Positions 31,416 through 62,602 of a DNA stretch of 64,000 nt are shown one piece after another; position 1 is the stretch's first letter, and each line of letters starts with the position of its first letter. Made by a program: the position numbers and the translations under genes. The stretch lies in the NCBI GenBank assembly GCA_028279765.1, contig JANQND010000002.1, positions 28,784 through 92,783 on the forward strand, read 5' to 3'. The DNA is from Candidatus Nanoarchaeia archaeon (GTDB lineage: Archaea; Nanobdellota; Nanobdellia; Woesearchaeales; WJIZ01). The notes below the pieces were generated by a model, which saw only the letters and a program-made list of their open reading frames with translations, had not been told where the DNA came from and did no database searches.

Positions 31416-32288
31416 TTATGTACTATCCAATTGGTCAATAAACAACTCACCCTTCTTCCTTTTCTTCTTTGCAAGGGTTTCAATAATATAGTCACTATAT
31501 TCCTGCGCCTCATCCTTAAATTCGCCTAAATAATTAGCACCTACCATAAAATAATCAATAAACCCGTCAACATCCTTCTTCTTAATGACAGAATACAACT
31601 CCTTGCAGGTGTCCATATACGTCTTAATCGCCTTTTCACTATACGGGTTATGCGTTCCGATATGCGCATACAGGTGCGGCTCCTGATTCAAAATTCGGCC
31701 AACCATATCCATACGCAGCTTATAGATAGGAGAGCCGAAGTCCTCGCTCTCCATCACATCAATATCCAGCTCCTTCAATACGTGGCTCATAGTAATCGAG
31801 CTAAAATGAGTAACTGCCTGTACTACCGACATCATCTTATCATGCTTTTGTGCAGAAGTAACCTTGATTTTCGCTCCTTCTTTCAAGAAAAGAGAAGTAA
31901 GCCACCCCTGCCATTTATTGCCGCGACCGGGACAAATCACCATGGTTTGGTTTCGCATGCTCGATACACTCGGGCCAAACACCGGATGAAGCCCGAGCAC
32001 CTCAGAAGGGGAATGTTCAAGCATCAACTCAATAGGCTCTTCCTTAATAGAAGTCAAGTCTGTCAATAACGCATCAGATCGAACATGAGGAGCTATACGC
32101 TTGATCACAGACTCCAAAGCATCCATGGGAACAGAAATAATCACCACATCTCCCTTTGCTGCAGCCTCTTCCATAGAAACAGCAGTTTTTCGGCCGCTCA
32201 GAATAACCGTGCAGCCGTGTCGCTCAAAAAAATGCTTAAACCATTGACCCATTGCACCGGTCCCGCCAATAATGCTTATCGTAGTCAT
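31416..32288 (-). CDS. tyrA: Prephenate/arogenate dehydrogenase
   Basis: IIGGTGAMG, DLTSIK, HPVFGP and HDKMMSVVQAVTH motifs. Confidence 0.92.
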   Translation of the reverse strand: MTTISIIGGTGAMGQWFKHFFERHGCTVILSGRKTAVSMEEAAAKGDVVIISVPMDALESVIKRIAPHVRSDALLTDLTSIKEEPIELMLEHSPSEVLGLHPVFGPSVSSMRNQTMVICPGRGNKWQGWLTSLFLKEGAKIKVTSAQKHDKMMSVVQAVTHFSSITMSHVLKELDIDVMESEDFGSPIYKLRMDMVGRILNQEPHLYAHIGTHNPYSEKAIKTYMDTCKELYSVIKKKDVDGFIDYFMVGANYLGEFKDEAQEYSDYIIETLAKKKRKKGELFIDQLDST

Positions 32289-33556
32289 TCTTCAATCCGA
32301 AAGGAACACCCCAATGCATTCATTTTGGAAACAAACAAAGGAAATGTAACATCAAGAGCATCAGCATTTTTAATACTAGTGATTCCGCTTGCGCCAAGCC
32401 CTGCACAGCCCAGTGCCATAATTGCCCGATGGTCCAGATGGCCATCAACGGAAGTACCAACCAAAGAAGATTTCCGAACAACTAGCCCATCTTCTCTCTC
32501 TTCAATCTGAGCACCAAGTTTTCGAAGCTCAGAGCACATAACCGAAATCCGGTCCGTCTCCTTAATGCGCGCCTGCGCAACATTTATCAATCGGGTCTCG
32601 CCGGAAGCAAAGCATCCCAAAACCGCCATCACCGGCAGCAGATCAGGCGTATCATTCAGATCCATCTCAACGCCTTTAAGCGAAGAAGGCGTAACAGCAA
32701 GTGAACCATCAACCCACCGTATATCAGCTCCCATTTGCTGCAAAAAAGAAATTATTCGCTTATCACCCTGCGAATCATCAGGATCAAGACCTGAAAAAGT
32801 AAGTGATGAGCCCGTAACCAAAGCAGCACACAGAGGAAACGCAGCAGAAGACCAGTCTGCAGGGATTGTTTTCGAAAACCCGGGATACGATTGCCCTCCG
32901 CTCACAGAAAACGTCGTTAAATGTTTGTGAGAGTAAGCAATATTCAACTCATCCAACCATCCTAACGTCATCTCCACATACGGCTTCTCATGCAAATCAG
33001 TAACCGTAATCACTGTATCATCTGAAAGTAACGGAGCAACCATCAGCAAACTCGTCAGATACTGTGACGTCTTTCCTGAAACCGTAACCTCTTCACCTCT
33101 TAAAGGACCCCCTACTTTCAGAGGAGCGCAGCCATTCCCCTTAACGCTCTTAGCAGCTCCTCCTAACGACTCCAACGCATCAAGCAAAGGCTGCATAGGA
33201 CGGGATCGAAGAGACTCATCTCCATCTAATCTTGTAGTCCCAGGACCCAACGCAGCAATGGAGCTAAATATGCGAAGCGATGTTCCGGAATTGCCAAGGT
33301 CAATGGAATCAACTGAATTAATGTCCTTTCCAACACCAGTACATTCCCATTTATTTCCTCTCTTACTTACCTTCAACCCTAAAGCCTGAGCAGCAAACAA
33401 AGCAGACAAAGTATCTGCAGACTCCAAGGGGTTATGAATAACAGACTTCTCAGAACTCAGCAAAGCAAATGCAAGTGCTCGGATAGTGTGCGATTTAGAC
33501 GAAGGTATAGCAATAGATCCACTAAGACCAGAGGTCTTCTCCACAGCAAGTTTCAT
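32285..33556 (-). CDS. aroA: EPSP synthase (3-phosphoshikimate 1-carboxyvinyltransferase)
   Basis: PSSKSHTIR, GNSGTSLR, KETDRI and DHR motifs. Confidence 0.96.
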   Translation of the reverse strand: MKLAVEKTSGLSGSIAIPSSKSHTIRALAFALLSSEKSVIHNPLESADTLSALFAAQALGLKVSKRGNKWECTGVGKDINSVDSIDLGNSGTSLRIFSSIAALGPGTTRLDGDESLRSRPMQPLLDALESLGGAAKSVKGNGCAPLKVGGPLRGEEVTVSGKTSQYLTSLLMVAPLLSDDTVITVTDLHEKPYVEMTLGWLDELNIAYSHKHLTTFSVSGGQSYPGFSKTIPADWSSAAFPLCAALVTGSSLTFSGLDPDDSQGDKRIISFLQQMGADIRWVDGSLAVTPSSLKGVEMDLNDTPDLLPVMAVLGCFASGETRLINVAQARIKETDRISVMCSELRKLGAQIEEREDGLVVRKSSLVGTSVDGHLDHRAIMALGCAGLGASGITSIKNADALDVTFPLFVSKMNALGCSFRIEE

Positions 33557-34617
33557 GATATCAGCTTTTGTGCAAAAAGGGCATCAACAAGAGTAATCGC
33601 GGTCATGCTCTCTATCACCGGAACCATGCGCGGACATAAACAGGGGTCATGTCGCCCCTGCACGGAAATATTTTTCCGCTTGCCGTTCACGTCAATCGTT
33701 GATTGCTCTTTGCCAATAGAAGAAGGGGGTTTAATTGCAGCACGAAACACAATCTGCTCCCCGTTAGAAATGCCGCCGGAAATACCGCCGGCATTATTTG
33801 TCTTCAAATGCACCTTTCCTTTTTCACCGATATCAAACTCATCATTATTCTCTGAGCCTTTAAGTACCGCTGACCCAAAGCCCATGCCAAACTCAATACT
33901 TTTGACCGCACCAATAGAAACAATAGCGTGCGATAGCTTTGCATCAAGCTTTTCAAAAACAGGATCGCCTAAACCTATCGGGCAACTATTCACCACGCAC
34001 TCCACAATGCCCCCCAAAGAATCACCTTCTTCCTTTGCTTTCTCAATCTCAGAGAGCATCAGTTTAGCAGCATTCTTATCCGGACATCGAACAGGATTTT
34101 TCTCAATCACCTTATAATCAATCGTCTCTGCTTTGACCTCGTGCACCTGTAAAGTATACGCGATTACACGAATATCATGCAGTGATAAAATTTTCTTTGC
34201 AATTGCGCCCGCAGCGACACGAGCCAAAGTCTCGCGACCTGACTGACGACCGCCTCCGCGATAATCCCTGTGGCCATATTTTTTTTGAAAAGTATAGTCC
34301 GCATGACCAGGCCGATACAAATCCTTGATATGCTTATATGCAAAAGGGTCTGCATCCTTATTATACACAACCAAACAAATAGGAGAGCCGATTGTTTTGT
34401 CCTCAAAAATTCCGCAAAGAATCTCTACCTTATCTTTTTCGGAGCGGGAAGTCGTTGCTTTGCTCTGTCCTGGTCTCCTGCGATCTAATTCCTTTTGAAT
34501 CTCCTGCTTCTTCAAAGAAATCCCAGCAGGAACACCGTCAATCACTACTCCAACAGCTGGGCCATGCGATTCGCCAAACGTAGTAACCCGAAAAAATCGT
34601 CCGAATGTATTACTCAT
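33553..34617 (-). CDS. aroC: Chorismate synthase
   Basis: TTFGESHG, RPGHAD, NNAGGISGGISNG and GRHDPC motifs. Confidence 0.97.
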   Translation of the reverse strand: MSNTFGRFFRVTTFGESHGPAVGVVIDGVPAGISLKKQEIQKELDRRRPGQSKATTSRSEKDKVEILCGIFEDKTIGSPICLVVYNKDADPFAYKHIKDLYRPGHADYTFQKKYGHRDYRGGGRQSGRETLARVAAGAIAKKILSLHDIRVIAYTLQVHEVKAETIDYKVIEKNPVRCPDKNAAKLMLSEIEKAKEEGDSLGGIVECVVNSCPIGLGDPVFEKLDAKLSHAIVSIGAVKSIEFGMGFGSAVLKGSENNDEFDIGEKGKVHLKTNNAGGISGGISNGEQIVFRAAIKPPSSIGKEQSTIDVNGKRKNISVQGRHDPCLCPRMVPVIESMTAITLVDALFAQKLIS

Positions 34618-34634
34618 ATCCTCATCGCCTCAAC

Positions 34635-35147
34635 CTAAAAATGAGCAGCAATCTCATCTGCAATCTGCTGTGCTGACCTCCCATGTGCAACAACAGTAAC
34701 GTCTGCTGCCTGCTCATACAGAGGCGATCGCTCCTTAAAAAGCTTTTCAAAGCGATCAGGTGCGTCTGCACCTGAAAACAGGGACGTCTTTAACTGGGTA
34801 ATGCGATCAAATAAGACCGATTTTTCTTCCTTAATATATACGACAGTACCTAAAGAACGAATGAGTTCACGGCTCTTCAAAAGAGAAAGGGAACCCCCTC
34901 CTACTGCAATAACACAATTGTCCCTTTCCTTCATCGACTCCAAGGCAGTAAACTCAAGCTCCCGAAAATAGTTCTCTCCATGCCTGGAATAAATCTCCTG
35001 AAAAGGAATTTTCCTGCCATGCTCTCTCTGATACAATTGTTCAATGACCATGTCCAAATCAATGAATTCCATCTTCTGCAGGCGAGCAAGAAGGGAACCT
35101 ACCGTCGATTTTCCCACAGCCTTAAATCCGATCAAAACAATATTCAT
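34635..35147 (-). CDS. aroK: Shikimate kinase, bacterial NMP-kinase type
   Basis: MNIVLIGFKAVGKS P-loop, GENYFRELE, GGG and RSPLY motifs; start moved to ATG 35147. Confidence 0.92.
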   Translation of the reverse strand: MNIVLIGFKAVGKSTVGSLLARLQKMEFIDLDMVIEQLYQREHGRKIPFQEIYSRHGENYFRELEFTALESMKERDNCVIAVGGGSLSLLKSRELIRSLGTVVYIKEEKSVLFDRITQLKTSLFSGADAPDRFEKLFKERSPLYEQAADVTVVAHGRSAQQIADEIAAHF

Positions 35148-36619
35148 TATTCCACCATATACTGCAGGACGCAGTCTTCCATAAACAGAGGGTCTGCTTT
35201 TTTCCCGGTCCACAGCGTGAATTGATGCGCTGCCTGCGCAACAAACAGAGACAAGCCGGATACCGTCTTGCAGCGCATTCGCTCTGCCTCATGCAATAAC
35301 TTCGTAACCAAGGGGTTATAGATCACATCAAACACTATCAACCGGTCTAAATACTTTCTATCGATAGGCATATCATGAATACGCGGGGACATACCCACTG
35401 ATGTGGCATTAATCAGAATATCAACAGACTTCCAGTCAATACTGGAAAGAAACGCATGAACCGCGCCCAGCTCCTTAGCCAATTCCTCTCCTTTGTCTGC
35501 AGAGCGATTAACAATCATCAATTCAGAGACCTTACCCACTAAAGCATATCCGATAGCACGTGCAGTCCCTCCAGCACCCAGCAGCACAACTTTCTTGCCT
35601 TGCAGCGAAGTCTTCTCCAGCAAAGCATCAAGCGCTCCCTGTGCATCAGTGTTATATCCTACCAATTTGCCCTTCTTTTTTACAACTGTATTCACTGCTC
35701 CAATCTTTTGTGCAAGAGGATCCAGCTCATCAAGAGAAGAAACAATAGAAGATTTAAACGGCATAGTCACACTCAACCCGTCAAAAAAATCCCGAAAATC
35801 GGAAACAAACGCATCAATATCGTCTACCAGGAAATTCAGATACACCGCATTAATTCCTTCTTCCTTGAACAGCAAATTATGCAGTAGGAATCCTCTGCTC
35901 TTGGACACTGGATTACCCACTAAACCATAAACTTTCAAACCCTCAGGTTTCAGCGAGCTAACCCTATACGCTTTCTTCAAATGCTCAATGGGAATTTGTC
36001 CTGGTGCTGTCTCCTTGCCGCGAGCTAAAGAACCATACGTCAAATACGAGCCATAAGCAACATTTAGGACACGGGAAATCTCTCCCTTCTCTCCCATAGC
36101 AATCCCTATCATGCTTACGCTCTCTTTTTTCGCTCTTTTCAGCAAATCAAAAAGAACAAGGTTATCAGAAAGGGAATCAGCCATGCTGGCAATCTTAATA
36201 ATATCCGCCTTAGAAGACTTCAAAGAAGCATACACACTATCCAAGTCGGAAGGAAACTGCTCAAAATGATGAGAGGAAACAATAATCTTCGTTGACTTCT
36301 CCATCTTCACAAAAGAGGAAACCTCAGAAGCACCACTGCTCCATTCAATATCAACATAATCAGCACCTAAAGAGATACATTCTTTAAGTAAAGCAATGCG
36401 CTCCTTCTCGCTACCGGAAAACCTTCCTCCTTCTGCTTTACTTCGACAAGTAAACAGCAAAGCACAAGGCTTACGATCCAGCAAATAAGAGATATCATCA
36501 GAACTGGGCTCTTCAAAATAGTCCAGGCGAATCTCGATCACATCAGCACGGCCACGAACAAATTGCATATCCTGTGCTGCCTCTTCCCTCCCTCTAGAAG
36601 TAAGCGAACAGCAAATCAT
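35147..36619 (-). CDS. aroDE: Bifunctional type I 3-dehydroquinate dehydratase / shikimate dehydrogenase
   Basis: N-terminal EIRLD, IVSSH and APGQ motifs; C-terminal SVTMPFK, GAVNT, GYNTD and NATSVGM motifs. Confidence 0.94.
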   Translation of the reverse strand: MICCSLTSRGREEAAQDMQFVRGRADVIEIRLDYFEEPSSDDISYLLDRKPCALLFTCRSKAEGGRFSGSEKERIALLKECISLGADYVDIEWSSGASEVSSFVKMEKSTKIIVSSHHFEQFPSDLDSVYASLKSSKADIIKIASMADSLSDNLVLFDLLKRAKKESVSMIGIAMGEKGEISRVLNVAYGSYLTYGSLARGKETAPGQIPIEHLKKAYRVSSLKPEGLKVYGLVGNPVSKSRGFLLHNLLFKEEGINAVYLNFLVDDIDAFVSDFRDFFDGLSVTMPFKSSIVSSLDELDPLAQKIGAVNTVVKKKGKLVGYNTDAQGALDALLEKTSLQGKKVVLLGAGGTARAIGYALVGKVSELMIVNRSADKGEELAKELGAVHAFLSSIDWKSVDILINATSVGMSPRIHDMPIDRKYLDRLIVFDVIYNPLVTKLLHEAERMRCKTVSGLSLFVAQAAHQFTLWTGKKADPLFMEDCVLQYMVE

Positions 36620-37698
36620 TGCATCTCACTGAGGACCTGCAATACCACATCATCCCCTGCCTCAACATCTATCTCCATATGTCCGATACTGGTTGGGAGC
36701 GCATACTGAACCACTCCTTTTGAAGATTTCTTATCATAAGAAGTGTGCTCAAGGACTTTGCGGGCACTATACGGAATAGCAGGCGAAACGCCAAGCTTTT
36801 CAATCAGATCAATGATCTTTTGATAATCCCTTGCATTCAGAATACTCATTGCTTTGGCAATCTTTGCCTCAGCAACCATCCCTAAAGCAACTGCCTCTCC
36901 GTGCGCAAGCGCATAATCAGAAACCTTCTCAAGAGCATGCCCAATCGTATGACCAAAATTCAGAATCTTCCTGATAGACTCTTCCTGTTCGTCCTGCTCA
37001 ACAACATCGCGCTTGATCGTGCTGCTCCATTCAATCGCCTTGCTCAGTGCATCTTCATCGCCGGAAAGGAGTTTTTCAAGATAATCCTCCATAAAAATAA
37101 AGAACTTCTCATCTGAAATAATACCATGTTTGATCATTTCAGTAATGCCATTGCGAAACTCTTTTTCGGGAAGTGTCTTGAGAACTGCAAGGTCAATGAA
37201 TACTCTTTTGGGCTGATAGAATGTGCCAATCATATTTTTGCCAGACGCAGTATTGATTCCGTTTTTTCCTCCAATACTGCTGTCCACCATAGCAAGCAAG
37301 GTAGTGGGAACATACACATAAGGTATTCCGCGCATGTAGGTGGAGGCAACAAACCCGGCAATATCTCCTACTACACCCCCTCCTAAGGCAAGAATCAGGC
37401 TATCGCGCCGAAAACCTTCACTGATAAGCATATCTTCTATACGCGCCTTAACCGTTCTATTCTTTGACTTTTCTCCTGCAGGAATAGTCACCAGTACACT
37501 ATTTAGGCCCTGTTTTTTAAACAGCTCAAAAAGATCCTTGCCGTACAGTTTCTTAACCGTAGAATCCGTAACAATTGCGATCTTGCTCAGATTCAGTTTA
37601 CTCAAGCCCTCAGCAAGTGATGCAAATAAATCATTTCCAATGACAATATCATAAGAGTGATCTACTGTTTTTTCAAGATCAACGCGCACGTGGTTCAT
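36616..37698 (-). CDS. aroB: 3-dehydroquinate synthase (bacterial AroB type)
   Basis: GGGVVGD, PTTLLAMVDSSIGGKNG and LNFGHTIGHA motifs. Confidence 0.96.
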   Translation of the reverse strand: MNHVRVDLEKTVDHSYDIVIGNDLFASLAEGLSKLNLSKIAIVTDSTVKKLYGKDLFELFKKQGLNSVLVTIPAGEKSKNRTVKARIEDMLISEGFRRDSLILALGGGVVGDIAGFVASTYMRGIPYVYVPTTLLAMVDSSIGGKNGINTASGKNMIGTFYQPKRVFIDLAVLKTLPEKEFRNGITEMIKHGIISDEKFFIFMEDYLEKLLSGDEDALSKAIEWSSTIKRDVVEQDEQEESIRKILNFGHTIGHALEKVSDYALAHGEAVALGMVAEAKIAKAMSILNARDYQKIIDLIEKLGVSPAIPYSARKVLEHTSYDKKSSKGVVQYALPTSIGHMEIDVEAGDDVVLQVLSEMQ

Positions 37699-37710
37699 AC
37701 TCCATCTACC

Positions 37711-38724
37711 TCATACGGATCTGCCGACAGACTGTGCAACCGGGCCAAGCTCCTTCATAAGAGCCGAAAACTCCTTTGTACTGATTGTCTGTTCAGCATC
37801 GCTTAATGCTTCCTCAGGATTAGGATGAACTTCCACAAGAAGGCCGTCTGCACCGCAGGCAATAGCTGCCTTAGAAAGAGGATGAACAAAAAGTCGCTTT
37901 CCGCTGCCGTGACTGGGGTCAACGATGATCGGCAGATGGCTTTCCTGCTTAATGAAAGGTATGGCATTCAGGTCAAGGGTATTACGCGAGAATCGGGTAA
38001 ATGTGCGTATTCCTCGCTCGCAGAGGATAATATTTCGGTTCCCCTCATTCATGATATGCTCTGCTGCAAGAAGGAACTCATGAACATCGGCACTCATTCC
38101 CCTCTTCAATAATACCGGTTTATCGCTCTTTCCCACTTCTTTGAGTAAAGGATAATTCTGCATATTGCGTGCACCAATCTGAAGAATGTCAGCATATTCT
38201 GAGACTAATGCAACATCACGTGTATCCATTACCTCTGTAGTGCAGGGAAGCCTCACGCTACTTGCAGCATCAGCAAGGTACTTCAGTCCTTCTTCTCCGA
38301 GTCCCTGAAAATCATGCGGACTGGTGCGCGGCTTGAACGCCCCGCCGCGAAGAATCAAAGCGCCGGATTTCTTCACTGCCTGTGCAGTCTGCAGGATTTG
38401 ATCCTTACTCTCAACAGCGCAGGGACCGGCAGTCACGGATAATTGTTTTCCTCCTATTTTCGCATCGCCAACACTAACCACGGTATTCTGGCTCTTAAAC
38501 TCTCTGCTCACCAGCTTATAGGATTTAGAAGTCGCAACCACCTCATCAACATAGTCAAGAGTGCCAAGCTGCTCCTCATTAATGAGGCTCTCGTCACCTA
38601 CCGCACCAATAACTGTCCGGTCCACTCCTACAGAAACATGCGGCTTTAATCCAATACTCTTTATTTTATCATGGATATGACTAATCTGTTCCTTCGTTGC
38701 TCCTTTTCGCAGGATAATTATCAT
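37711..38724 (-). CDS. aroF: DAHP synthase type I-beta with N-terminal ACT/ferredoxin-like regulatory domain
   Basis: AGPCAVES, GGAFKPRTSP, IGARNMQN and DPSHG motifs. Confidence 0.95.
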   Translation of the reverse strand: MIIILRKGATKEQISHIHDKIKSIGLKPHVSVGVDRTVIGAVGDESLINEEQLGTLDYVDEVVATSKSYKLVSREFKSQNTVVSVGDAKIGGKQLSVTAGPCAVESKDQILQTAQAVKKSGALILRGGAFKPRTSPHDFQGLGEEGLKYLADAASSVRLPCTTEVMDTRDVALVSEYADILQIGARNMQNYPLLKEVGKSDKPVLLKRGMSADVHEFLLAAEHIMNEGNRNIILCERGIRTFTRFSRNTLDLNAIPFIKQESHLPIIVDPSHGSGKRLFVHPLSKAAIACGADGLLVEVHPNPEEALSDAEQTISTKEFSALMKELGPVAQSVGRSV

Positions 38725-39921: not shown

Positions 39922-40881
39922 ATGTCATCGACACTTATCATCACACCTGCATATATCCCCGCCGAATCGCATTTGGGGTATCTAGATGATGCAATCAATA
40001 GCGTAACTAGGCTAACAGATGATGTAGTACACCTAGTAGTTGCTGATGGATCGCCTATAGATCCGCAGGATACAGTCAACTCTTATTCTGACTCTAGAAT
40101 TAGATTATATAAGAGAGATCGTGCTGAAAACGATCTGCATACTTCATCAAATTCACTAAACCAGGTGATAAATAGTATTCTTGATGGATCAAACAAAGCA
40201 ATCGGAGGAGATGAAGAAATAAAGTACTTAACCATTTTAAGCTATGATGATGTCATGGTAAATCTAAAAAGCAGAGTTGAGACGCTATCCTCTCCTGATA
40301 CTGTAGTTTCAGTTTCTGACTTGATAACTTTTGAAGGAGAGTTCTACGCTAAGAGAAAGAAAGTAAAGAGTACCAACCCTCAAGAATACATTGAAAGAGG
40401 AAGGATAGCTGGGTTGAATCACACTTCTGCGGTGTTGGCTCTTGATTTCGTAAAAGAAATGAAAAAATACATACAATCAGAACAGGGGAAAGAGGATATT
40501 TTCCCCCCGGATATATGCTATGGAGAGGATCGGGCAGTGGGCAAACTAATGATTTACTTAGTAGACAAGATGAAGAAAATAATTTCCTATGTCCCCGAAG
40601 TAGGAATGCTTCATCGAAGAGATCCGATGTCGTTGAGTTCTCGGTTAGATTCTAGGAAAGTTGAGCAAGATAGAAAAGTTGTTGACGAACTCTATTATCC
40701 TAGTAGAAGAAGCAAAATAACAAATTCAACCCTATTTAGACAATTATATTTCAATACCATTAGACCTAACCATTCTATGCTAAGAAAAATATGGGGAAAG
40801 GTTTCTTCCAAAGAAGAAAGAGAATTTGTTCGAGAATTCTTCGCTGATCTGCATAAGGTAAATGGTAAACCTAAACTTTAA
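39922..40881 (+). CDS. Divergent GT2-like glycosyltransferase
   Basis: IITPAY, VVADGS, LSYDD and GED motifs of the GT-A fold. Confidence 0.65.
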   Translation: MSSTLIITPAYIPAESHLGYLDDAINSVTRLTDDVVHLVVADGSPIDPQDTVNSYSDSRIRLYKRDRAENDLHTSSNSLNQVINSILDGSNKAIGGDEEIKYLTILSYDDVMVNLKSRVETLSSPDTVVSVSDLITFEGEFYAKRKKVKSTNPQEYIERGRIAGLNHTSAVLALDFVKEMKKYIQSEQGKEDIFPPDICYGEDRAVGKLMIYLVDKMKKIISYVPEVGMLHRRDPMSLSSRLDSRKVEQDRKVVDELYYPSRRSKITNSTLFRQLYFNTIRPNHSMLRKIWGKVSSKEEREFVREFFADLHKVNGKPKL

Positions 40882-42063: not shown

Positions 42064-42139
42064 AGGAAAACCAAAACTTTATATATAAACATATTCATTT
42101 TTTAACTCTACAATAGAGAATACTATACCGAGGCATAAA

Positions 42140-43336
42140 TTGAAGCGAAAATCTCAATCTGGCACAAATGCAGCAATTCTAATCGCAATCATCTCCGCAC
42201 TTATCATTCTCTACATTGTCTTTCTCCCAACTGATGAACGCCTGGAACTCATTGGAGAAAATGACACCAATGGAAACAATGACGATGATAACGGAGGAAA
42301 GCTACTGGTAGAGGATACCGAAATCATCATGGAGCATTTCAAGGAAGATGAAATTGAATATGACCTTCCCTCTGTAAATCTGTACACAAAAACAGGCGCA
42401 GAAAACATAGTCTCAGAAAATGCTATCTATGTGAAGAGCAGCGCTTTTGAACAGGAGTCAAAGGAAATTCCCTTCACCATTGACGATCCAGGCAACACAG
42501 AGAATGTCATTCTGAGCTTCTTTGCAAAAAAGAACAAAGGAAGATTAATGATCACACTTAACGGAAGAGAGATCTATAATAGTGAGATTTCACAAGTCAA
42601 TGTTGATCCAATCAGGCTCCCCAAGAGCCTGCTTGCGGAAAAAAATGATCTCAAGTTGGAGGTTTCGGGAGTTGGGGCTGCGTTCTGGGCAACCAATGAA
42701 TTCCTATTAGAAGGAGTAAAGATAACCGCTGATGTAACGGACCTATCTGCAACAGAGTCAGAGCTTACCTTTGTGGTACCCAAATCAGAAGCAAATAATA
42801 TTGATGAGGCAAGGTTAAGGTTCGTTCCGGAATGTCAGCCAGAAAGGGTAGGCATACTTGATATCGAATTAAATAATAGAGAAATCTTCTCCGCAATTCC
42901 CGATTGCGGCAATCCCAGGCCACTGGACTTCTCACCAAATCTCATCAGACAAGGGGAAAACACCCTTACCTTCAAAACAGAAGAGGGAAGATATCTTATT
43001 GATAGAATCAGGGTGACAACCGAGCTTGAAGAGACTCCCTCATTTACGTACTTTTTTGATCTTGATGAAGACGACTTTGAAGATATTCAAAACGAAGACA
43101 AAGTGGTAAATGTTACGCTTCATTTTGTTGATGATGATGAGGATAAAGAAGCAGAATTTATTATCAATGGCGGCCTGGGAAAGCGGTCTATGCGGCGCCA
43201 TGATGATGCGAAATGGAGTGTTACCCTTATTAAAGATCATCTGGAAGAAGGCTCAAATTCAATCAAGATCATCCCTCAAACACGTCTGGAAATCCGCAAG
43301 CTTCAGATTCGTCTTGTCAACAAGGATGATGATTGA
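42140..43336 (+). CDS. Surface protein with class III (pilin-type) signal-like N-terminus and repeated acidic beta-sandwich modules
   Basis: MKRKSQ followed by a hydrophobic helix; three units of the form L.I.LN.REI...L..G.N.L. Confidence 0.6.
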   Translation: MKRKSQSGTNAAILIAIISALIILYIVFLPTDERLELIGENDTNGNNDDDNGGKLLVEDTEIIMEHFKEDEIEYDLPSVNLYTKTGAENIVSENAIYVKSSAFEQESKEIPFTIDDPGNTENVILSFFAKKNKGRLMITLNGREIYNSEISQVNVDPIRLPKSLLAEKNDLKLEVSGVGAAFWATNEFLLEGVKITADVTDLSATESELTFVVPKSEANNIDEARLRFVPECQPERVGILDIELNNREIFSAIPDCGNPRPLDFSPNLIRQGENTLTFKTEEGRYLIDRIRVTTELEETPSFTYFFDLDEDDFEDIQNEDKVVNVTLHFVDDDEDKEAEFIINGGLGKRSMRRHDDAKWSVTLIKDHLEEGSNSIKIIPQTRLEIRKLQIRLVNKDDD

Positions 43337-43427
43337 GCAGAGCTTTTTCTAAAAAAGAGGAAACAGCATTATGGTATTCAACTGGCTCAAGAATAAGGCG
43401 CAGACAGAAAGTTGGAGAAGGTGCTAA

Positions 43428-45950
43428 TTGGTAAAACAAATACTGAAAAGAACCGCCGACGGGTTTGCTGATCGATTTGTTCCCACCAGGTCAGTAGGGG
43501 AAGGAAAAAAAGGAACTACAAGTTTGGCATTCATTTTTCTTGCCATGGTGGTAAACTACTGGATTGACAGAAAATCGAGTGGAGGCTTTCTTGGTTTTGA
43601 TTTCACTTATTTTAACGCAATAATATTTGGTGGAGACTGGTTCACACTCTACAATGTGCTGCATTTTAACATATTTTTCCTCATTTTGGTGTTCGCGCTC
43701 TTTAACCTAAGAGGAAGGGACCCTCATATCCTTAGAGTCTGGTTGAGTCTAATACTCATCCTCTATTTGCTCAGTGCGATTCCTGTATTGAACACTTACA
43801 TGGGCATAAAGAGCGGATTAGAACTGTTATTGCTGCTCTTAAGTGCCTTTCATCTCAGCTTTTATTACACCACAAAAGAAGACTTCATCTCAACAGTGGT
43901 ATTATTTTGGGTATTCTACAATTTATGGATGTTTGGGATTGCATCAGTAGGATTCTTATCAGGACTTGCTCATTTTTTGTATGTGGTTCTCTTTTACATC
44001 ATTTTTTGTACAGGATCAAAGTACCAAGCAGATCGGGTAAAGATAAAATGGTGGCTCTTGATCATTATTCTCTTCGACTTTTTCCTCCCGCAGCTGCTCG
44101 CAAACGCGTTTCCTAATCTTCCGATCGATGCGCTTCCCTTCTTAACACTGGGCACGATTTTTTTCGCCCAGGCCTACGAACCCTCGACACTAACGGTATT
44201 TATGATCATTGGATTTACTGCGTTCTATTTCTTTCAGCTTGCAAGCGCAACCGACCAGTACAATCTCATCCTGCCGGGAAGAAACGTCGATCCCGACCAG
44301 GTTGAAAACCGAACAGAGGTGATTAAATTCTGGAAGTGGATCCCTGAGAGGGTAAGGGAGTGGACTGATCGTTCCGTCAAACTCGGTGCTGGCCACGATT
44401 ACTATGCGGGGCAGGTAGACGAGAATGCAAAAAAGAACCTTGGAGTCTACCTTGAAGGGCTGGATGATAATACCCGCCTTCATTTTGATAATGAAAGAAT
44501 TGTCCTTGACGCTACTCTTACTGCACAGAATTTTGCAGCTGAAGAGGAAGATCCCTTTTACGAGAGCCTTAATATAGAAGTGGAATGCTCTGCCTACAAA
44601 GGAGATGAGTTCGTTCTAAAAGGAAAAGTGTATCCCCAACAAGTATACCAGATTGAAAGTTTTGATATTGAGAACCTGCAGTGTATTTTTGATCCCTGGC
44701 AGCTAGACAAAGGAAGGTATACCATTCGATTTGAAGCAACCTTCAATTTCAAGACCCAGTCCTATTTGAAAAGATATTTCGTCTCAGAAGAGCTTATTGA
44801 TTCACTAAGAAGGAGACAGCTCATACAGCAAGACATAGATATTCTCAAGTTAAATAAGATCAATGAAATAAAGCCTAAAGTACAGAACAGTGTGGGTCCT
44901 GTCCAGGTAAAAGCATCGGACAGGATTCCTTCTGTTATAAAAATTGATAGCAGCCAGGATCGAAAGCAGTTATTCGGTATTCAGTTATTTAATGAGTGGG
45001 AAGGGGACATAAAAAGAGTAAAGGACATACAGCTCTATCTGCCTAAGGGAATCGTGCTGGATAAAGCAGAAGGGAATGTAAATCACTGTACCTATAGGAT
45101 GGAGCCCGCCTCTATCTTAGATCCTGAGAACTTCGCAGACTATACAGGATATAAGCTGCAGGACATCACTCATCCTGATCTTAAAAATATCGAAAGAGAC
45201 ATCCGGCAGACGTGTGGATTACTGCTTGAAAAGGGTCAGGCACAGAACATCCTGCAGCCAGGAGATGTTACTACTCGCTATTTCAGGATGATTACTGAAT
45301 ACGAGTACACGCTCAAGGAGGAGACTGCAATTGATATTAGAGAGCCTATCGATTTTAGGGTAGAAATTCTCTCTTCAGATGGTAAACAAGTACAGTCTGA
45401 TAAGGCGATCGAATGTGTCGCAAAAGACGGTAAAAGGTTAGAAGGAAACGCAGATTTTGCTCTTTATATCAATGACGTCAAGATCAGTGAAGAAAGTAAC
45501 GCTTGTAGCGAGGATCCCTATGAATGCAGGCAGTTCTTCAGTTACAGGCCTTCCAAGGGAGATGTGATAAAATGTGAAGCGACTATGGGAATCCCGGGAG
45601 AGGAGAACTATGAAAATGCAGAGTCCTATGTCACTGTTCAAAATGCTCCTCCTGAAATCGCTTCTTTGGCCTTCGAGTATCAACAGTACAATAAAGGAGA
45701 TAATGCGGTATGTACAGTTCAGGTGCAAGACCCGGATAAAGACATTATCACTGTTCGGTTTGACTATGAAGGAATTTATCTTGCCCCAACACAAAAAGAA
45801 TGCAATCAAAAGTGCAGCATCGAAATTCCCACTCAAGATATTGATACTGACTCTACCATTACGTGTAAAGCAAGAGCCTATGATGGTACTGATTCAAGTA
45901 ACGAGCACACTGCATCAAGTTCGATTGTAATTCCGCAGGCACAAATATGA
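43428..45950 (+). CDS. Large polytopic membrane protein with extracellular beta-rich and Ig-like domains
   Basis: About 8-9 N-terminal TM helices, then a soluble region with GVYLE...GPVQV...YEY similar to the downstream lipoproteins, then Cys-paired Ig-like repeats. Confidence 0.65.
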   Translation: MVKQILKRTADGFADRFVPTRSVGEGKKGTTSLAFIFLAMVVNYWIDRKSSGGFLGFDFTYFNAIIFGGDWFTLYNVLHFNIFFLILVFALFNLRGRDPHILRVWLSLILILYLLSAIPVLNTYMGIKSGLELLLLLLSAFHLSFYYTTKEDFISTVVLFWVFYNLWMFGIASVGFLSGLAHFLYVVLFYIIFCTGSKYQADRVKIKWWLLIIILFDFFLPQLLANAFPNLPIDALPFLTLGTIFFAQAYEPSTLTVFMIIGFTAFYFFQLASATDQYNLILPGRNVDPDQVENRTEVIKFWKWIPERVREWTDRSVKLGAGHDYYAGQVDENAKKNLGVYLEGLDDNTRLHFDNERIVLDATLTAQNFAAEEEDPFYESLNIEVECSAYKGDEFVLKGKVYPQQVYQIESFDIENLQCIFDPWQLDKGRYTIRFEATFNFKTQSYLKRYFVSEELIDSLRRRQLIQQDIDILKLNKINEIKPKVQNSVGPVQVKASDRIPSVIKIDSSQDRKQLFGIQLFNEWEGDIKRVKDIQLYLPKGIVLDKAEGNVNHCTYRMEPASILDPENFADYTGYKLQDITHPDLKNIERDIRQTCGLLLEKGQAQNILQPGDVTTRYFRMITEYEYTLKEETAIDIREPIDFRVEILSSDGKQVQSDKAIECVAKDGKRLEGNADFALYINDVKISEESNACSEDPYECRQFFSYRPSKGDVIKCEATMGIPGEENYENAESYVTVQNAPPEIASLAFEYQQYNKGDNAVCTVQVQDPDKDIITVRFDYEGIYLAPTQKECNQKCSIEIPTQDIDTDSTITCKARAYDGTDSSNEHTASSSIVIPQAQI

Positions 45951-46939
45951 AAAAAATAGTCCTCCCTCTGATATTCGTATGCTTTGTATTCATTATTGGG
46001 TGCGACACTAATTCAGGAGAGGGGGCAACGCAGGTAGAGTTGCAGAAAGGAAGTAAAGGGTTAACCATAGACTTCCTCAAACAAGGAGTATCAGATCAGA
46101 TCCGTGAAGGAGAGACAGTCTTAGTTCCCTTTGAAATACGCAATGAAGGGTTCTATGATATCCGTCAGGGAATCCTCATACCGGCAGTTGAGCGGGACAT
46201 CGTTGAAATCGAGTCATGGGATTATTCTGTGAATATGCAGGTGCAATCGGATCAAACACTGCTCTATGATCTGAAAGGAAAGTCGCTTGCTAATACAAAA
46301 GGAGAGATGCAGGTAGCCTCTCTTATCCTTAAGGCGAAGAGCATCGATGATACGAGAAATAAAGTTGAATCGAGAATCGTATTCAATACCTGTTATCCTT
46401 ATGCTACTGTATTTTCAGATACGCTCTGTATTGACACCGACCCCCATGGAGTGAGCATTGCTGAGAAAACATGTAAAGCAAGAGACCTCTCCTCATCTGG
46501 TCAGGGGGCACCCGTTGCTGTAACGAAAGTAGAGCAGAAAATACTCCCCGGGAAAACAAAAGAAAGCATAGGGATTGAGTTCACCATTCATGCGGAAAAC
46601 AAGGGAAAAGGGATCGTAACTAATCATGAAAGATACAGGGAAATCTGTTTGGGGAGAAGTGCAGAAAAAGAAGATTTTAATGCTCTCTCTTTGGAGCGTT
46701 TGCAGTTCTCCGGACACGAGTACATAAGAGGAAGAGATTCAGACATGGAATGTGCCCCTAACCCGGTAAGGGAGACAAAAAAAGGCTTCGTAATAAGGTG
46801 CGCTACAAAAGATGAAAATGCGATCTCGAAAAGCAGGCTCACCTTTGAGACCCCTATAGTAATCGAGCTATCCTACGGATATAAAGAAGCAGTCTCATCA
46901 GAAATTCAGATACTCAACGATAATGAAGAATTGTCCTAA
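45947..46939 (+). CDS. Uncharacterised lipoprotein, paralog 1 (CYxY / GAPV family)
   Basis: Lipobox FIIGC; GSKGLTIDF, CYPYAT..CID, SGQGAPVAVT, NKGKG and LSYGY. Confidence 0.75.
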   Translation: MKKIVLPLIFVCFVFIIGCDTNSGEGATQVELQKGSKGLTIDFLKQGVSDQIREGETVLVPFEIRNEGFYDIRQGILIPAVERDIVEIESWDYSVNMQVQSDQTLLYDLKGKSLANTKGEMQVASLILKAKSIDDTRNKVESRIVFNTCYPYATVFSDTLCIDTDPHGVSIAEKTCKARDLSSSGQGAPVAVTKVEQKILPGKTKESIGIEFTIHAENKGKGIVTNHERYREICLGRSAEKEDFNALSLERLQFSGHEYIRGRDSDMECAPNPVRETKKGFVIRCATKDENAISKSRLTFETPIVIELSYGYKEAVSSEIQILNDNEELS

Positions 46940-47011
46940 GAAGAAAAGACGATTGAATTCAACAAAACTTTTATATAACAAAATTTGAATGAATAAGCCA
47001 GTACCGATAAA

Positions 47012-47968
47012 ATGAGAAAAATCCATCTTATAGCACTGCTCATTATTTCAGTTTTTATTCTTGCGTCATGCGCAAGCAGTTCTAATAATAGGGAAGGAGA
47101 GAGAATTTCTGCAAAGGACTATCGAAAAGGAACAAAAGGCCTTGAGATGGAATTCGTCAGGAATGCTCCTCCTGATAGGATATACTCTGGGGACGACTTA
47201 GATATTATTATTGATGTAAAAAACGTTGGTGCCTATCCGACAACAGATTCTTTTGACGGAAAACTGGAAATTTATGGGTATGATGACAAGGCGTTTTCCG
47301 GAGAACGGTGGGATGGTGGGCCACTGCTCACCCCGGAATTGCAGGGAAGAAGCCAGTTTGCGCCTCAGGGTGGAAGACAGAGCAAGCAGTTCCATGTAAA
47401 CAGAGTGTCAACACTCTTCAATTCTGAGTTCTATGAGCCAAGAATTATCGTCGCAGCCTGCTACAAATACAGAACAATCGCAGAGCCGCTAGTATGTATT
47501 GACCCGGAGCCCTTCTCTGTCTTTGATGAGGAAAAAGTATGCACTATAGATAGGAACGGAGAGACCTACACCCTCACGAGCCAGGGTGCACCGGTTGCCG
47601 TAACCAGGGTAACAGAAGAAATCAGCAGCAATAATATTCATTTTAGCATCGAAATAAAAAATGTAGGAAATGGAAAAGTAGTGGATGAAAATATACGAAA
47701 TGACTGCCCACTAAACCTTGATTTTAACGATATAGACAAAGTGCTGGTGAGTGCCAAGCTTCCCTGGGATTCTTCTCCTAATTGTCAACCAAGAGGAGAT
47801 CACCGCGATCCAGTACGGCTTGATGAGAGTGGAAGAGGCCATATTTTCTGCACATTCAGAAAACCAGACTCCAAATCAGCATTTGAAACAGTCCTGCAGG
47901 TTCAGCTCGATTATCGCTACCTTGATTCTATAGAAAAGAAAATAGAGATTACCAATATAAACAGATAA
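47012..47968 (+). CDS. Uncharacterised lipoprotein, paralog 2 (CYxY / GAPV family)
   Basis: Lipobox ILASC; GTKGLEMEF, CYKYRT..CID, SQGAPVAVT, NVGNG and LDYRY. Confidence 0.75.
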   Translation: MRKIHLIALLIISVFILASCASSSNNREGERISAKDYRKGTKGLEMEFVRNAPPDRIYSGDDLDIIIDVKNVGAYPTTDSFDGKLEIYGYDDKAFSGERWDGGPLLTPELQGRSQFAPQGGRQSKQFHVNRVSTLFNSEFYEPRIIVAACYKYRTIAEPLVCIDPEPFSVFDEEKVCTIDRNGETYTLTSQGAPVAVTRVTEEISSNNIHFSIEIKNVGNGKVVDENIRNDCPLNLDFNDIDKVLVSAKLPWDSSPNCQPRGDHRDPVRLDESGRGHIFCTFRKPDSKSAFETVLQVQLDYRYLDSIEKKIEITNINR

Positions 47969-48020
47969 CCGTAAGAGACAATAAGGTTTATATAGATAAA
48001 GCGTGTAAAAGTGAAGTAAA

Positions 48021-48968
48021 ATGAAAAAAACACTATTCATGATCCTCATTCTCTCTGTACTGGCAGTAGGATGCACTACTTCAGGCGATACCGGCACAAG
48101 CCTCTCTGATCCCTGGATCGGCGGGACCGACGGAATTATTATCTCTTTTGAAGAAGATGCACCCCAGGCAGAAGTATTCGATGGAGGGGATTTTCCATTT
48201 GGAGTAGTAGTCAAGCTCAAGAACGAAGGAGAGTATACTGTTCCGAAGGAAGATGTAAAAGTTACTATCTCGGGAATTCTTGCCTCTGAGTTTGGAAAAC
48301 AGGAAAGTGATCTTGAATTGGTCCCTGAAGATAGCATTGAAGGGAAACTAAAGGATACAGACGGAAAAATCAGGGATTCCGATCCGGTATTTATTGACTT
48401 CGGGGATTTTACATACCTCTCTGAATTAGTTGCACAGCAATCCTATACACTCAGAGCAGAAGCATGCTATAAGTACCAGACAACAGCAAACTCTCAAATT
48501 TGTGTATTAAAAGATAATCTCGACACTGAAGATAGTGTCTGCAAAGTAAATGAAAATAAGCAGGTATTCAGCTCAGGCGCTCCTGTGCAGGTTACAGAAT
48601 TCAAGGAATCCTCAAGAGGAAAGGACAAAATTGCGTTCTCATTCACTGTCTCACACAAAGGCAATGGAAGAATTTTTGAACAATCTAGTGGCTGTGATAC
48701 CAGTTCCAGAGCGTTCGAGGATAGAGTCTCTATTGAAATCGACACCGGTCTTGAAGGAGCGCTGGAGTGTTCAGGTCTTAGAGATGAGACATCAGGAGCA
48801 GGAGCAACCACAGGACAAATTACCCTTTTCTCGAATGAAAAGCCCATAACCTGCACCCAAACGATCACCACAAACTCAGATTATCAGCAGCCCGTAGTCA
48901 TCAAACTAACGTATGACTATAAGGACAGCAAAGAGACTTCTGTGTTAGTGAAGCATCAATTGAATTAG
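48021..48968 (+). CDS. Uncharacterised lipoprotein, paralog 3 (CYxY / GAPV family)
   Basis: Lipobox LAVGC; GTDGIIISF, CYKYQT..CV, SSGAPVQVT, HKGNG and LTYDY. Confidence 0.75.
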   Translation: MKKTLFMILILSVLAVGCTTSGDTGTSLSDPWIGGTDGIIISFEEDAPQAEVFDGGDFPFGVVVKLKNEGEYTVPKEDVKVTISGILASEFGKQESDLELVPEDSIEGKLKDTDGKIRDSDPVFIDFGDFTYLSELVAQQSYTLRAEACYKYQTTANSQICVLKDNLDTEDSVCKVNENKQVFSSGAPVQVTEFKESSRGKDKIAFSFTVSHKGNGRIFEQSSGCDTSSRAFEDRVSIEIDTGLEGALECSGLRDETSGAGATTGQITLFSNEKPITCTQTITTNSDYQQPVVIKLTYDYKDSKETSVLVKHQLN

Positions 48969-48971
48969 AAA

Positions 48972-49844
48972 ATGCTGGGAGTATTCTCAAGGAGCTGGGA
49001 AATAACAAAACTCAGTTTCAATATTATTAAGCAGGATAAAGAACTCCTTTTATTTCCTTTGTTGTCAGGGTTTTTCTCTCTGCTGTTTCTCATAAGCATG
49101 GTATTGCCGACGATACTTTCCTCAATTGCCACAGGCGGCTCTCAGCTGTCAGGTATCGAGTTTCTGGTTATGTTTATCATATACCTGGGTCTTGCATTCA
49201 TCGCAACATTCTTCAATGTCTGTGTAGTGTATACCACAAAAAAGAGATTTGAAGGAGGGAATGCGACATTCAAAGAAAGCCTAAGTTATGCTATGTCAAA
49301 ATTGAGATTAATTCTTTCCTGGAGTCTTCTTGCTGCAACCGTAGGCATCATATTGCGAATAATCGACAGGCTGGCTCAGAGAATAGGAGGAGCAGGGCAA
49401 GCAATACTTGGCCTTCTCAACGGAATATTAGGGATGGTATGGAGCATTATCACTATCTTCGTAGTTCCTGCAATGGTATACCATGACCTAGGGCCTAAAG
49501 AGGCCATAAAAAAATCGGTAGAGGTGCTTAAAAAAACCTGGGGCGAGAGCCTGATCAGATACTATGGCCTTGGCATAATCCAGTTCCTATTCATTTTAGC
49601 AGGAGCAGCTATGGTGTTTCTTCTCTTCTTTCTGTTAGTTCCGTTAGGCATAATTGGAGTGGGGATCGTTATACTGCTCGGTATTGTCTATCTTGCCATA
49701 GTTTTGCTTGCATTCTCTGTTGCGAATACAGTGTTCAATGTTGCTCTATATCTTTATGCAGAGAAAGGAAAGGTGCCGCAAGGGTATACACAGGAAATCA
49801 TGAAAAGTGCCTTCAAAGTAAATCAAGAGAAGTCAATGATCTAA
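48972..49844 (+). CDS. Integral membrane protein (DUF6159-like)
   Basis: RSWEITKLSF..DKELLLFP, FVVPAMV and KKTWGE; about 6 TM helices. Confidence 0.7.
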   Translation: MLGVFSRSWEITKLSFNIIKQDKELLLFPLLSGFFSLLFLISMVLPTILSSIATGGSQLSGIEFLVMFIIYLGLAFIATFFNVCVVYTTKKRFEGGNATFKESLSYAMSKLRLILSWSLLAATVGIILRIIDRLAQRIGGAGQAILGLLNGILGMVWSIITIFVVPAMVYHDLGPKEAIKKSVEVLKKTWGESLIRYYGLGIIQFLFILAGAAMVFLLFFLLVPLGIIGVGIVILLGIVYLAIVLLAFSVANTVFNVALYLYAEKGKVPQGYTQEIMKSAFKVNQEKSMI

Positions 49845-61459: not shown

Positions 61460-62602
61460 TTATTCATAGAATGAAAACTCTCCTCCCTCAATTCTCATTA
61501 GGTTAAGGGGCTTGTCAACATCTCCATTCTTATCAATAGCAGTGATACCCCCTACTCCTTGATATCCCTTTACTTGATACAAATATTCTTTGATAGAATC
61601 AGCATCATGTCCATTTGATTGAATCGCAAGAGAAATAAGATAGACAGCATCATAGGCATTTGCACTTGCCCACAAAATTGCAGGTTTCGAGCCATAAGCC
61701 GAAACATGCTTTCCGACAAAAGAGCTAATAAGAGGATACGATTCATCAAGACCAGGGCTAACAAAATAGGAACCATCAATTGCATTTCCAGCTGTCTCAA
61801 CAACTTCTTCAGTTCCGAAATTATCGCTTCCAATGATTGGTTTGGCAAGACCCAATTCTTTAGCCTGTCTGGCAATTATTCCTCCTTCTCTTCCATATGA
61901 TATGACAATCAAAGCATCAGGGTTCATAGCCTTAATCTTAGTGAGAATTCCTTTAAAGTCTGTAGTATCTGGATTATACGCTTCTTGAAGTAATACCTCT
62001 CCTCCTTTTCTTGAAAAGCTCCTAGTAAACGCGGTTGATAAAGTATTCCCATAATCATTATTGACGTAAATTACTGCGGCAAAATTAAGGTCGAGTTTGT
62101 CTTGTATTACCTCACCTAAGTATTCTCCTTGATAGCCGTTAGATACAGAATTTCGGAAAACGTAATCTCCTGCTTCTGAAATTGCAGTTGCAGTAGCAAC
62201 AGGTGAAAAAAGAATAACTTTGTCTTGCTGGGAAAGAGGTGCAACAGCAAGGACTGTTCCTGAGCATAGGGGTCCAATAATTGCTTCGACGTTCTTGGTT
62301 GTGACTAGTTTATTGTAGGCAAGGATAGTGTTAGCTTCATCACATTGGTCATCTTCATAATGAATTACGAGTTTCTCTCCATTTATGCCTCCTTTTGCAT
62401 TAATTTCAGCAGCAGCAAGTTCTACTCCCACTCTCATAGACTCTCCCCAGTTAGATAATTCTCCTGAAAGAGGTGCAATAAAACCCAACGCGATAGGCTC
62501 TTCCCTAATAACTTGGCCCGTAGTAGCAGGGTATAAATACACAAAAGAAAAAGCGATTACGAGCAGTACAGCAATAGATAAAAATGCAATTTGTTTCTTC
62601 AT
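61460..62602 (-). CDS. LivJ-type ABC substrate-binding protein, membrane anchored
   Basis: GFIAPLSG, INAKGGING, IIGPLCS, DYVFR and AYDAV motifs. Confidence 0.88.
   Translation of the reverse strand: MKKQIAFLSIAVLLVIAFSFVYLYPATTGQVIREEPIALGFIAPLSGELSNWGESMRVGVELAAAEINAKGGINGEKLVIHYEDDQCDEANTILAYNKLVTTKNVEAIIGPLCSGTVLAVAPLSQQDKVILFSPVATATAISEAGDYVFRNSVSNGYQGEYLGEVIQDKLDLNFAAVIYVNNDYGNTLSTAFTRSFSRKGGEVLLQEAYNPDTTDFKGILTKIKAMNPDALIVISYGREGGIIARQAKELGLAKPIIGSDNFGTEEVVETAGNAIDGSYFVSPGLDESYPLISSFVGKHVSAYGSKPAILWASANAYDAVYLISLAIQSNGHDADSIKEYLYQVKGYQGVGGITAIDKNGDVDKPLNLMRIEGGEFSFYE

Follow-up and report, generated by a model that had tools for sequence, protein, structure and literature searches.

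Positions 42140-49844 of the 64,000-nucleotide (nt) stretch of Woesearchaeales DNA analyzed here (the window, which lies on contig C5 of a source assembly of 1.50 Mb in 31 contigs, 90% complete) contain six open reading frames (ORFs) by ORF calling, all on the + strand, as an earlier reading made from the letters alone (the sequence-only reading) had reported. Judged from gene order and homology, the conserved unit is the first five of these genes, g1 to g5 (42140-48968), and the best reading of their products is a single conserved extracytoplasmic, membrane-anchored module. We propose, at a probability of roughly 0.4, that they form a membrane-anchored surface assembly presenting the variable tip of g2 for cell-cell contact. 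For the means by which DPANN archaea recognize and hold other cells, the cluster is a near-universal five-gene candidate in Woesearchaeales; if the bolder version of the proposal considered below is true, it would put names to the genes by which members of the largest DPANN order attach to their hosts. The locus is laid out as follows (aa, amino acids).

42078..42085, + strand: TTTATATA box, likely cluster promoter, some 55 nt before g1
42140..43336, + strand: g1, 398 aa; class III (pilin-type) signal-like N terminus and three homologous beta modules of about 95 aa
43428..45950, + strand: g2, whole, 840 aa
43428..44387, + strand: N-terminal part of g2 (aa 1-320), predicted membrane anchor with at least seven hydrophobic segments
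44388..45365, + strand: conserved ectodomain core of g2 (aa 321-646), as delimited by alignment of orthologues
45366..45950, + strand: C-terminal tail of g2 (aa 647-840), Cys-rich, 194 aa, specific to this family of genomes
45947..46939, + strand: g3, lipoprotein paralog 1, 330 aa, lipobox IIGC
46970..46977, + strand: TTTATATA box, 42 nt upstream of g4
47012..47968, + strand: g4, lipoprotein paralog 2, 318 aa, lipobox LASC
47987..47994, + strand: TTTATATA box, 34 nt upstream of g5
48021..48968, + strand: g5, lipoprotein paralog 3, 315 aa, lipobox AVGC
48972..49844, + strand: g6, DUF6159 polytopic membrane protein, 290 aa, 3 nt after g5

The hint of a function comes from g2. Its orthologues were taken from a synteny set of 45 loci from 45 genomes (40 of the same order and 5 from other orders), onto whose ORFs the window genes were mapped, and their alignments show conservation only at residues 321-646, a core with invariant C, C, G, and Y and nearly invariant W, P, T, and further C. 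Across the fetched loci, g2-position proteins range from 414 to 1164 aa. The number of hydrophobic segments in the membrane part runs from one or two to many between lineages, with wide variation in length and sequence, and this part is therefore better taken as an anchor than as an enzyme or channel that is conserved. Variation extends to the C-terminal part, which in 7 of 38 g2-position proteins ends in a murein hydrolase domain recognized by Pfam: SLT (PF01464) in five (L012, L013, L031, L039, and L042; best E 3.1e-17), Peptidase_M23 in one (L046:3827-6583; E 6.1e-15), and NlpC/P60 in one (L036:4281-7016; 23.6 bits, with the cut-off at 23). The Cys-rich tail of the window g2 sits where these lineages have their hydrolase. 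Since three unrelated murein hydrolases are fused at the same position, we infer that the distal end of g2 reaches the walls of other cells. These independent fusions link the cluster to bacterial cell walls, which makes the idea testable and lends separate support to a link with host or neighbor contact, host attachment having been among the suggestions of the sequence-only reading.

In the arrangement we envisage, all five products would lie on the outer side of the cytoplasmic membrane. g1 would be attached through a pilin-type N-terminal helix that prepilin peptidase probably cleaves after [KR][GAS], g2 through a variable transmembrane anchor, and g3, g4, and g5 through a lipid predicted on the N-terminal lipobox Cys. 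The five proteins may then join in one hetero-oligomeric surface structure, as the retention of three lipoprotein types and the tight g2-g3 junction suggest. The three Ig-like (immunoglobulin-like) lipoproteins and the three-module g1 would make up a membrane-proximal body, and the conserved part of the g2 ectodomain would hold out from it a distal module that is exchanged between lineages, a Cys-rich tail here and a lytic transglycosylase or an M23 or NlpC/P60 peptidase elsewhere. The likely job of such a structure would be contact with the surface of a neighbor or host cell and, in some lineages, the opening of bacterial murein. A predicted heterotrimer of mature g3, g4, and g5 scored 0.52, 0.49, and 0.48, against 0.51 for a control with g3 replaced, and so counts neither for nor against binding.

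Distribution and gene order of the five-gene unit

The lipoprotein family was recovered from 270 of 301 genomes in an even sample of the phylum (268 of 299 without the two unpublished genomes, G243 and G244). Most of the listed genomes of the same order have three matches and some have four or five, and other orders of the class have one to three. The source genome encodes exactly three copies, all at this locus, and one copy each of g1 and g2. Of 61 genomes of the order searched in full, 59 have g1 and 55 have the g2 core; each is nearly always a single gene, and the two are neighbors on a shared contig. By these counts g1 is the best conserved member of the cluster, and because it was found in 6 of 10 genomes in which the lipoprotein profile gave no match, some apparent absences reflect divergence or assembly gaps. 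All named relatives of the cluster proteins are labeled Candidatus Woesearchaeota or Nanoarchaeota, in keeping with the restriction to symbiotic archaea that the sequence-only reading had proposed.

Among the fetched loci the unit recurs as g1-g2-lipoproteins between pelota and RFC-small. In 38 of the 45, g1 precedes the lipoproteins on their own strand, and in the 40 same-order loci RFC-small is present in 39 and pelota in 31. The seven loci in which g1 is not beside the lipoproteins are L011, L014, L015, L020, L032, L038, and L045, the last of which stops at a contig end. The overlap of g2 with the first paralog, noted already by the sequence-only reading, amounts to 4 nt in the window (45947-45950); according to longest-ORF coordinates, the same 4-nt overlap between g2 stop and first lipoprotein start is found in 16 of 38 loci, and in 34 the two genes either overlap or are separated by no more than 19 nt. 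Loci from other orders, five in all, combine g1 with a protein of 414 to 482 aa that has one or two hydrophobic segments and with one or two lipoproteins, a lipoprotein following directly after g1 in L026. In three other-order loci (L024:3341-4378, L025:13429-14508, and L028:13671-14756) we also observe a FAD_binding_3 gene resembling geranylgeranyl reductase immediately upstream of g1, which is probably mere synteny.

Of the six genes grouped by the sequence-only reading, co-conservation holds for g1 to g5, which are strictly kept in order and orientation, and fails for g6, which was found in none of the 45 related loci. g6 matches DUF6159 (PF19656) at E 1.6e-29 (103.7 bits, with the cut-off at 27; model positions 2-201 of 204). 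For g1 to g5, no family is above threshold in Pfam or NCBIfam, and at least three large protein families, those of g1, of the g2 core, and of the lipoproteins, are without a model in either. With a gap of 3 nt, g6 is probably cotranscribed with the cluster in this genome. It occurs in 4 of 31 relatives' genomes, the source genome counted, and close homologues (54 to 56% identity) in two of them, one from the same family and one from a different family, are flanked by neither g5 nor RFC (L053 and L054); in three same-family genomes g5 is joined directly to RFC. The patchy occurrence of the DUF6159 gene and its homologues at other loci suggest movement between genomes. On this comparative evidence g6 is a passenger outside the conserved cluster rather than its closing member.

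The neighborhood consists of housekeeping genes, with pelota upstream in divergent orientation, a shikimate operon further upstream, and an RFC small subunit, a PRC-barrel protein, and a class I W/Y tRNA synthetase downstream. A defense or phage origin was considered and rejected in view of this context and of the universality of the cluster. The shikimate run (31416-38724, - strand) comprises DAHP synthase, DHQ synthase, a fused DHQase/shikimate dehydrogenase, shikimate kinase, chorismate synthase, and EPSP synthase, plus prephenate dehydrogenase, a biosynthetic repertoire seldom expected of a 1.5-Mb genome of DPANN type. Between a TrmB-type regulator and pelota lies an ORF of 319 aa (39922-40881, + strand) that matches no Pfam family at E 0.001 or 0.01.

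The lipoproteins, g1, and g2

That g3, g4, and g5 are paralogous is evident from BLASTP (g3-g4, E 1e-27; g4-g5, E 5e-17; g3-g5, E 6e-6). Judged by a lipobox criterion of an N-terminal signal peptide ending in [LVI][ASTG][GAS]-Cys, each was assigned to the lipoproteins (...FIIGC in g3, ...ILASC in g4, and ...LAVGC in g5), and this Cys is invariant in 45 family members. Both the three-paralog lipoprotein assignment and the full-length motif list of the sequence-only reading are thus upheld, the motifs being present in all three proteins and invariant or nearly so among the 45. In g4 numbering, the invariant or near-invariant residues are G40, G43, N71, G73, C150, Y151, Y153, T155, C162, C177, Q191-G-A-P-V195, N217, G219, G221, C258, C280, Y301, and Y303, and the fully invariant columns include G40, G43, N71, G73, Y153, T155, C162, C177, G192, P194, G219, G221, C258, C280, Y301, and Y303. 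Six conserved Cys were counted in favor of an extracellular character. As to the enzymes of archaeal lipidation, AliA/AliB are known only from Haloferax according to the consulted portion of PMC13631571.

The lipoprotein family is large, with 2701 representative clusters at E ≤0.001 (841 at E ≤1e-30) in a library of 1.84 billion proteins, and every one of its 234 word-indexed homologues is labeled "hypothetical." No sequence relative was found among the solved structures of the PDB, g3 and g5 have no Pfam match at E up to 1, and g4 matches only in its signal peptide. Longer, fused forms did not appear in the database search, which is weak evidence for their absence. An AlphaFold2 model of g4 made from the family alignment (predicted local distance difference test score, 91.7; predicted template modeling score, 0.83) is all-beta past the signal helix and has the seven-to-nine-stranded beta-sandwich fold of CARDB or Ig-like domains. 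Searched against the PDB with Foldseek, it retrieves only generic tandem-Ig proteins, at template modeling scores of at most 0.23 and with about 100 aligned residues across positions 41-318. The model reads as a sandwich of the N- and C-terminal segments into which a second, Cys-rich sandwich (about residues 95-238) is inserted, a nested Ig/CARDB-like fold. A relation to class II fusogens was also considered and discarded, since the Fsx1/HAP2 matches are confined to the Ig-like domain III and tied with many others.

In a quick maximum-likelihood tree of 70 lipoproteins, in which long branches were flagged, the position-3 (g5-type) proteins form one clade (SH-like approximate likelihood ratio test [SH-aLRT], 98) that includes the last lipoproteins of other orders. 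The position-1 and position-2 proteins together form another clade (SH-aLRT, 95), and the first-of-two proteins of other orders fall outside the position-3 clade on long branches. From these clades it appears that the triplication of the lipoprotein is ancient, predating the radiation of the order, and that each copy has been kept since.

The N terminus of g1 is conserved as MKRKSQSG followed by a hydrophobic helix ending in LYIVFLP, which agrees with the class III signal pattern at the extreme N terminus ([KR]-[GAS], then Q or a small residue, then a hydrophobic helix); the window has MKRKSQSGTNAAILIAI... at this position. [KR][GAS]Q precedes the helix in 32 of 39 orthologues by script and in one more (L013) by eye, the remaining six having the close variants KGA, KGS, RGA, NSQ, IGQ, and QGQ. 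The class III-like K-S-Q site seen by the sequence-only reading is therefore a conserved feature, and the three repeated modules that it described are homologous by hhalign (modules 1 and 2, E 1.6e-11; 2 and 3, E 5.8e-7; 1 and 3, E 2.3e-3). No pilin or flagellin N-terminal family matches g1 in Pfam or NCBIfam at E up to 1, and the ESM Atlas returns only unnamed Woesearchaeota clusters. Some g1 orthologues are longer (547 to 673 aa; L021:13489-15177 on the - strand, G338, G203, G207, G313, G320, G336, G017, and G131) and have an insert of about 150 aa between modules 2 and 3, which is Cys-rich in L021, the one sequence viewed.

For g2, two elements of the sequence-only reading could not be sustained. 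For the Ig-like repeats, the tail yields neither a Pfam match nor an internal BLAST repeat, and the diverged lipoprotein copy yields only P values of about 0.01 to 0.03 in profile comparisons. A three-sequence lipoprotein profile found nothing in g2 or g1, and an iterative search with a lipoprotein hidden Markov model (HMM) recruited none of 35 g2 ORFs. Deeper profiles aligned with g2 in hhalign at E 0.011 over 112 columns and at E 0.0084 over 28 columns, and a 235-sequence profile at E 0.066, with E 0.18 for the reversed control. An alignment of 35 g2 cores scored 25.6 and ranked 2 of 61, the best of 60 block-permuted controls reaching 28.7, and the lipoprotein HMM exceeded 4 bits in 8 of 21 g2 cores versus 1 of 420 shuffles. 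By eye, the motifs of the two families are co-linear (LGV strand, F-x-F-x-T, GP, N-x-W-x-G, Cys, and Y-x-Y). We regard this likeness as a faint co-linear signal in the last hairpin, insufficient for a fourth paralog. The g2 core has only 5 word-indexed homologues, and the ESM Atlas gave no usable match for g2. As identities for g2, AglB or another GT-C glycosyltransferase and a pilus platform protein were tried and set aside, there being no family match and no conservation of the membrane part.

Alternative readings of the locus

Several observations weigh against a contact function. SLT (PF01464), M23, and NlpC/P60 domains were found neither in the window g2 nor in the 90%-complete source genome, and 31 of the 38 g2-position relatives likewise have no murein hydrolase domain; the cutting of murein consequently cannot be the core function. 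No Peptidase_A24 (prepilin peptidase) match was found in the source assembly, although 57 of 61 genomes in the order encode the enzyme, including a same-family genome. In g1, 5 to 8 residues separate the putative cut from the start of the helix, whereas in textbook pilins the hydrophobic helix starts closer to the cleavage site. The near-universality of the cluster among housekeeping genes fits a structural envelope role equally well, and the conserved gene order could in part be inherited synteny rather than functional coupling. The S-layer-like lattice, attachment organelle, and pilus-associated platform listed by the sequence-only reading stay as alternatives that the data do not separate.

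Possible, though on the unlikely side, is a general cell-envelope scaffold, in which the Ig-like lipoproteins together with g1 and g2 would form an S-layer-like or S-layer-anchoring lattice and the hydrolases would be merely parked. Apart from single-copy, near-universal occurrence in housekeeping surroundings, it draws on promoter boxes and an expression proxy. The window contains 11 matches to TTTATATA versus 2.8 expected from shuffles, all of them between or just before long ORFs, which fits use as the TATA box of this organism. Two of the paralogs have a box of their own, as had been claimed (g4 at 46970 and g5 at 47987), and a third box precedes g1 (42078). In a codon index built from the ribosomal-protein genes of the window and applied to 698 long ORFs, g1 and g5 stand at about the 90th percentile and g4 at the 69th, but the signal is weak and g2 and g3 fall below the median. 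No other S-layer candidate turned up, with no search aimed at one. Against a lattice, no known S-layer family was matched in Pfam, NCBIfam, or PDB sequences, and neither was an ATP-binding cassette (ABC) binding-protein family, the other example that the sequence-only reading had named as telling against it; in addition, lipoproteins of 30 kDa are small for lattice proteins, and g2, the fastest-evolving member with its swappable tips, is more typical of interaction modules. If the scaffold reading were true, a missing envelope scaffold would be identified, which is of comparable weight for cell biology.

Beyond the contact assembly proposed here, we consider doubtful the bolder version in which the five proteins are the cell-contact apparatus of Woesearchaeales, with a hetero-oligomeric base of lipoproteins and g1 and a g2 "spike" whose tip is swapped between lineages (adhesin-like Cys-rich tails or one of the three hydrolase types), and which would thus be a polymorphic weapon or adhesin system without a described archaeal or bacterial counterpart.

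It is improbable, in our estimate, that g1 is a type IV pilin-like subunit, for instance a minor or tip pilin whose three modules are adhesins, put together by the pilus machinery of the cell into a filament to which g2 to g5 are accessory or docking factors. The conserved [KR][GAS]Q N terminus speaks for such a role, as do three T2SSE-type ATPases in the source genome, the prepilin peptidase found through most of the order, and about 20 other ORFs of the genome headed by [KR][GAS]Q and a hydrophobic helix, several of which continue in the classical pilin-like manner (KSQAAMEFL). However, in the window the cluster neither contains nor adjoins a gene for an ATPase, platform protein, or peptidase, none is among the scanned flank genes of other orders, g1 matched no pilin Pfam family, and the pilin-like gene clusters of the genome are located elsewhere. 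The conserved helix end, LY(I/V)LFLPPxER, moreover looks like a stable membrane anchor. Pilin-like ORFs were observed on the same contig outside the window (G000:C5:123694-131500) and on other contigs, including a cluster of five small genes.

We give similarly little credence to the five genes being neighbors through inherited synteny only, with products that share no structure and work each on its own, say as adhesins or envelope proteins. For this reading, pelota and RFC on the flanks show the same synteny with no link in function, and g1 is away from the lipoproteins in the seven loci named above. This reading has to contend with five genes on one strand that mostly overlap or nearly abut, the recurrent 4-nt g2-g3 junction, the maintenance of each of the three paralog types across the order, and the joint occurrence of g1, g2, and at least one lipoprotein in other orders too.

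Least credible by far is a solute or lipid uptake device in which lipoprotein binding proteins feed a g2 permease, since, even though DPANN cells depend on imported lipids and metabolites and lipoproteins beside a polytopic membrane protein resemble a binding-protein-dependent importer in outline, the all-beta Ig-like lipoprotein model is not the alpha/beta fold of ABC-type substrate-binding proteins, no substrate-binding protein, permease, or ATPase family was matched, and the membrane part of g2, which is unconserved and in other orders is reduced to one or two hydrophobic segments, cannot be reconciled with a channel that is conserved. A real substrate-binding protein (Peripla_BP_6) is encoded elsewhere in the window, at 61460-62602.

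Comparison with known systems

A full-text literature search found in the text portions it covered no description of the cluster or operon, of g1, or of the lipoprotein family; supplementary tables, such as those of PMC8204110 with its module 98, may list them as anonymous families. The closest published relatives of the proposed contact assembly are the large extracellular SLT/GH23 proteins of Woese- and Pacearchaeota, for which attachment to or attack on bacteria has been proposed (PMC8204110, PMC9723730, and PMC12352652, as excerpted), including binding of bacterial walls (PMC8204110 and PMC9723730). The first of these papers also mentions, in the part consulted, a module particular to Woese- and Pacearchaeota groups that comprises 51 families, most of them unknown (PMC8204110). 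The SLT proteins and the cluster belong to the same lineages and share the character of membrane-anchored extracellular proteins, but those proteins are presented as single large ones, and the consulted sections of PMC8204110 and PMC9723730 make no mention of the g2 core, g1, lipoprotein partners, or an operon. The window g2 differs from them in having no SLT domain. With SLT at the C terminus of 5 of 38 g2-position proteins, part of the published set may nevertheless be g2 orthologues. In a metaproteome, Pacearchaeota were represented only by hypothetical proteins and two enzymes, according to the relevant excerpt of PMC11537232.

Both lipoprotein sandwiches show the N-x-G strand-end motifs also present in CARDB (PF07705) and in other Ig-like domains (the MG domains of alpha-2-macroglobulin, S-layer SbsC, and domain III of Fsx1/HAP2). 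Unlike those families, the lipoproteins nest one sandwich in another, with a Cys-rich insertion, and have no Pfam match to them at E up to 1.

Archaeal proteins with class III signals include pilins and the pilin-signal-bearing binding proteins of Sulfolobus. g1 resembles them in its basic stretch, G/A/S, Q/A/S, and hydrophobic helix, a motif common to the pilin-like ORFs of the genome, and departs from the pilins among them in its length of about 400 aa, its three beta modules, the 5- to 8-residue spacer, and the lack of a pilin family match or of assembly genes nearby. Another comparison is with SlaA/SlaB of Sulfolobales, which are encoded by adjacent genes and build an envelope layer in which an outer partner joins a beta-sandwich stalk anchored in the membrane. 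The cluster showed no relation to that pair by sequence or family; it has five components, and its predicted anchors are lipids and an N-terminal helix, not C-terminal.

As a DPANN cell-contact structure, the attachment organelle of Nanobdellota YN1/Nanobdella, the one such organelle imaged so far, offers a parallel. Cryo-electron tomography of thermophilic Nanobdellales, whose hosts are archaea, showed it to consist of a cone, a portal, and a filament, and its proteins are stated to be unknown in the part of the report drawn on here (PMC11420986). In another order, the cluster described here is a candidate to play an analogous part. Tests of two 0.5-Mb genomes of the class (G031 and G059) found neither g1 nor the lipoprotein family.

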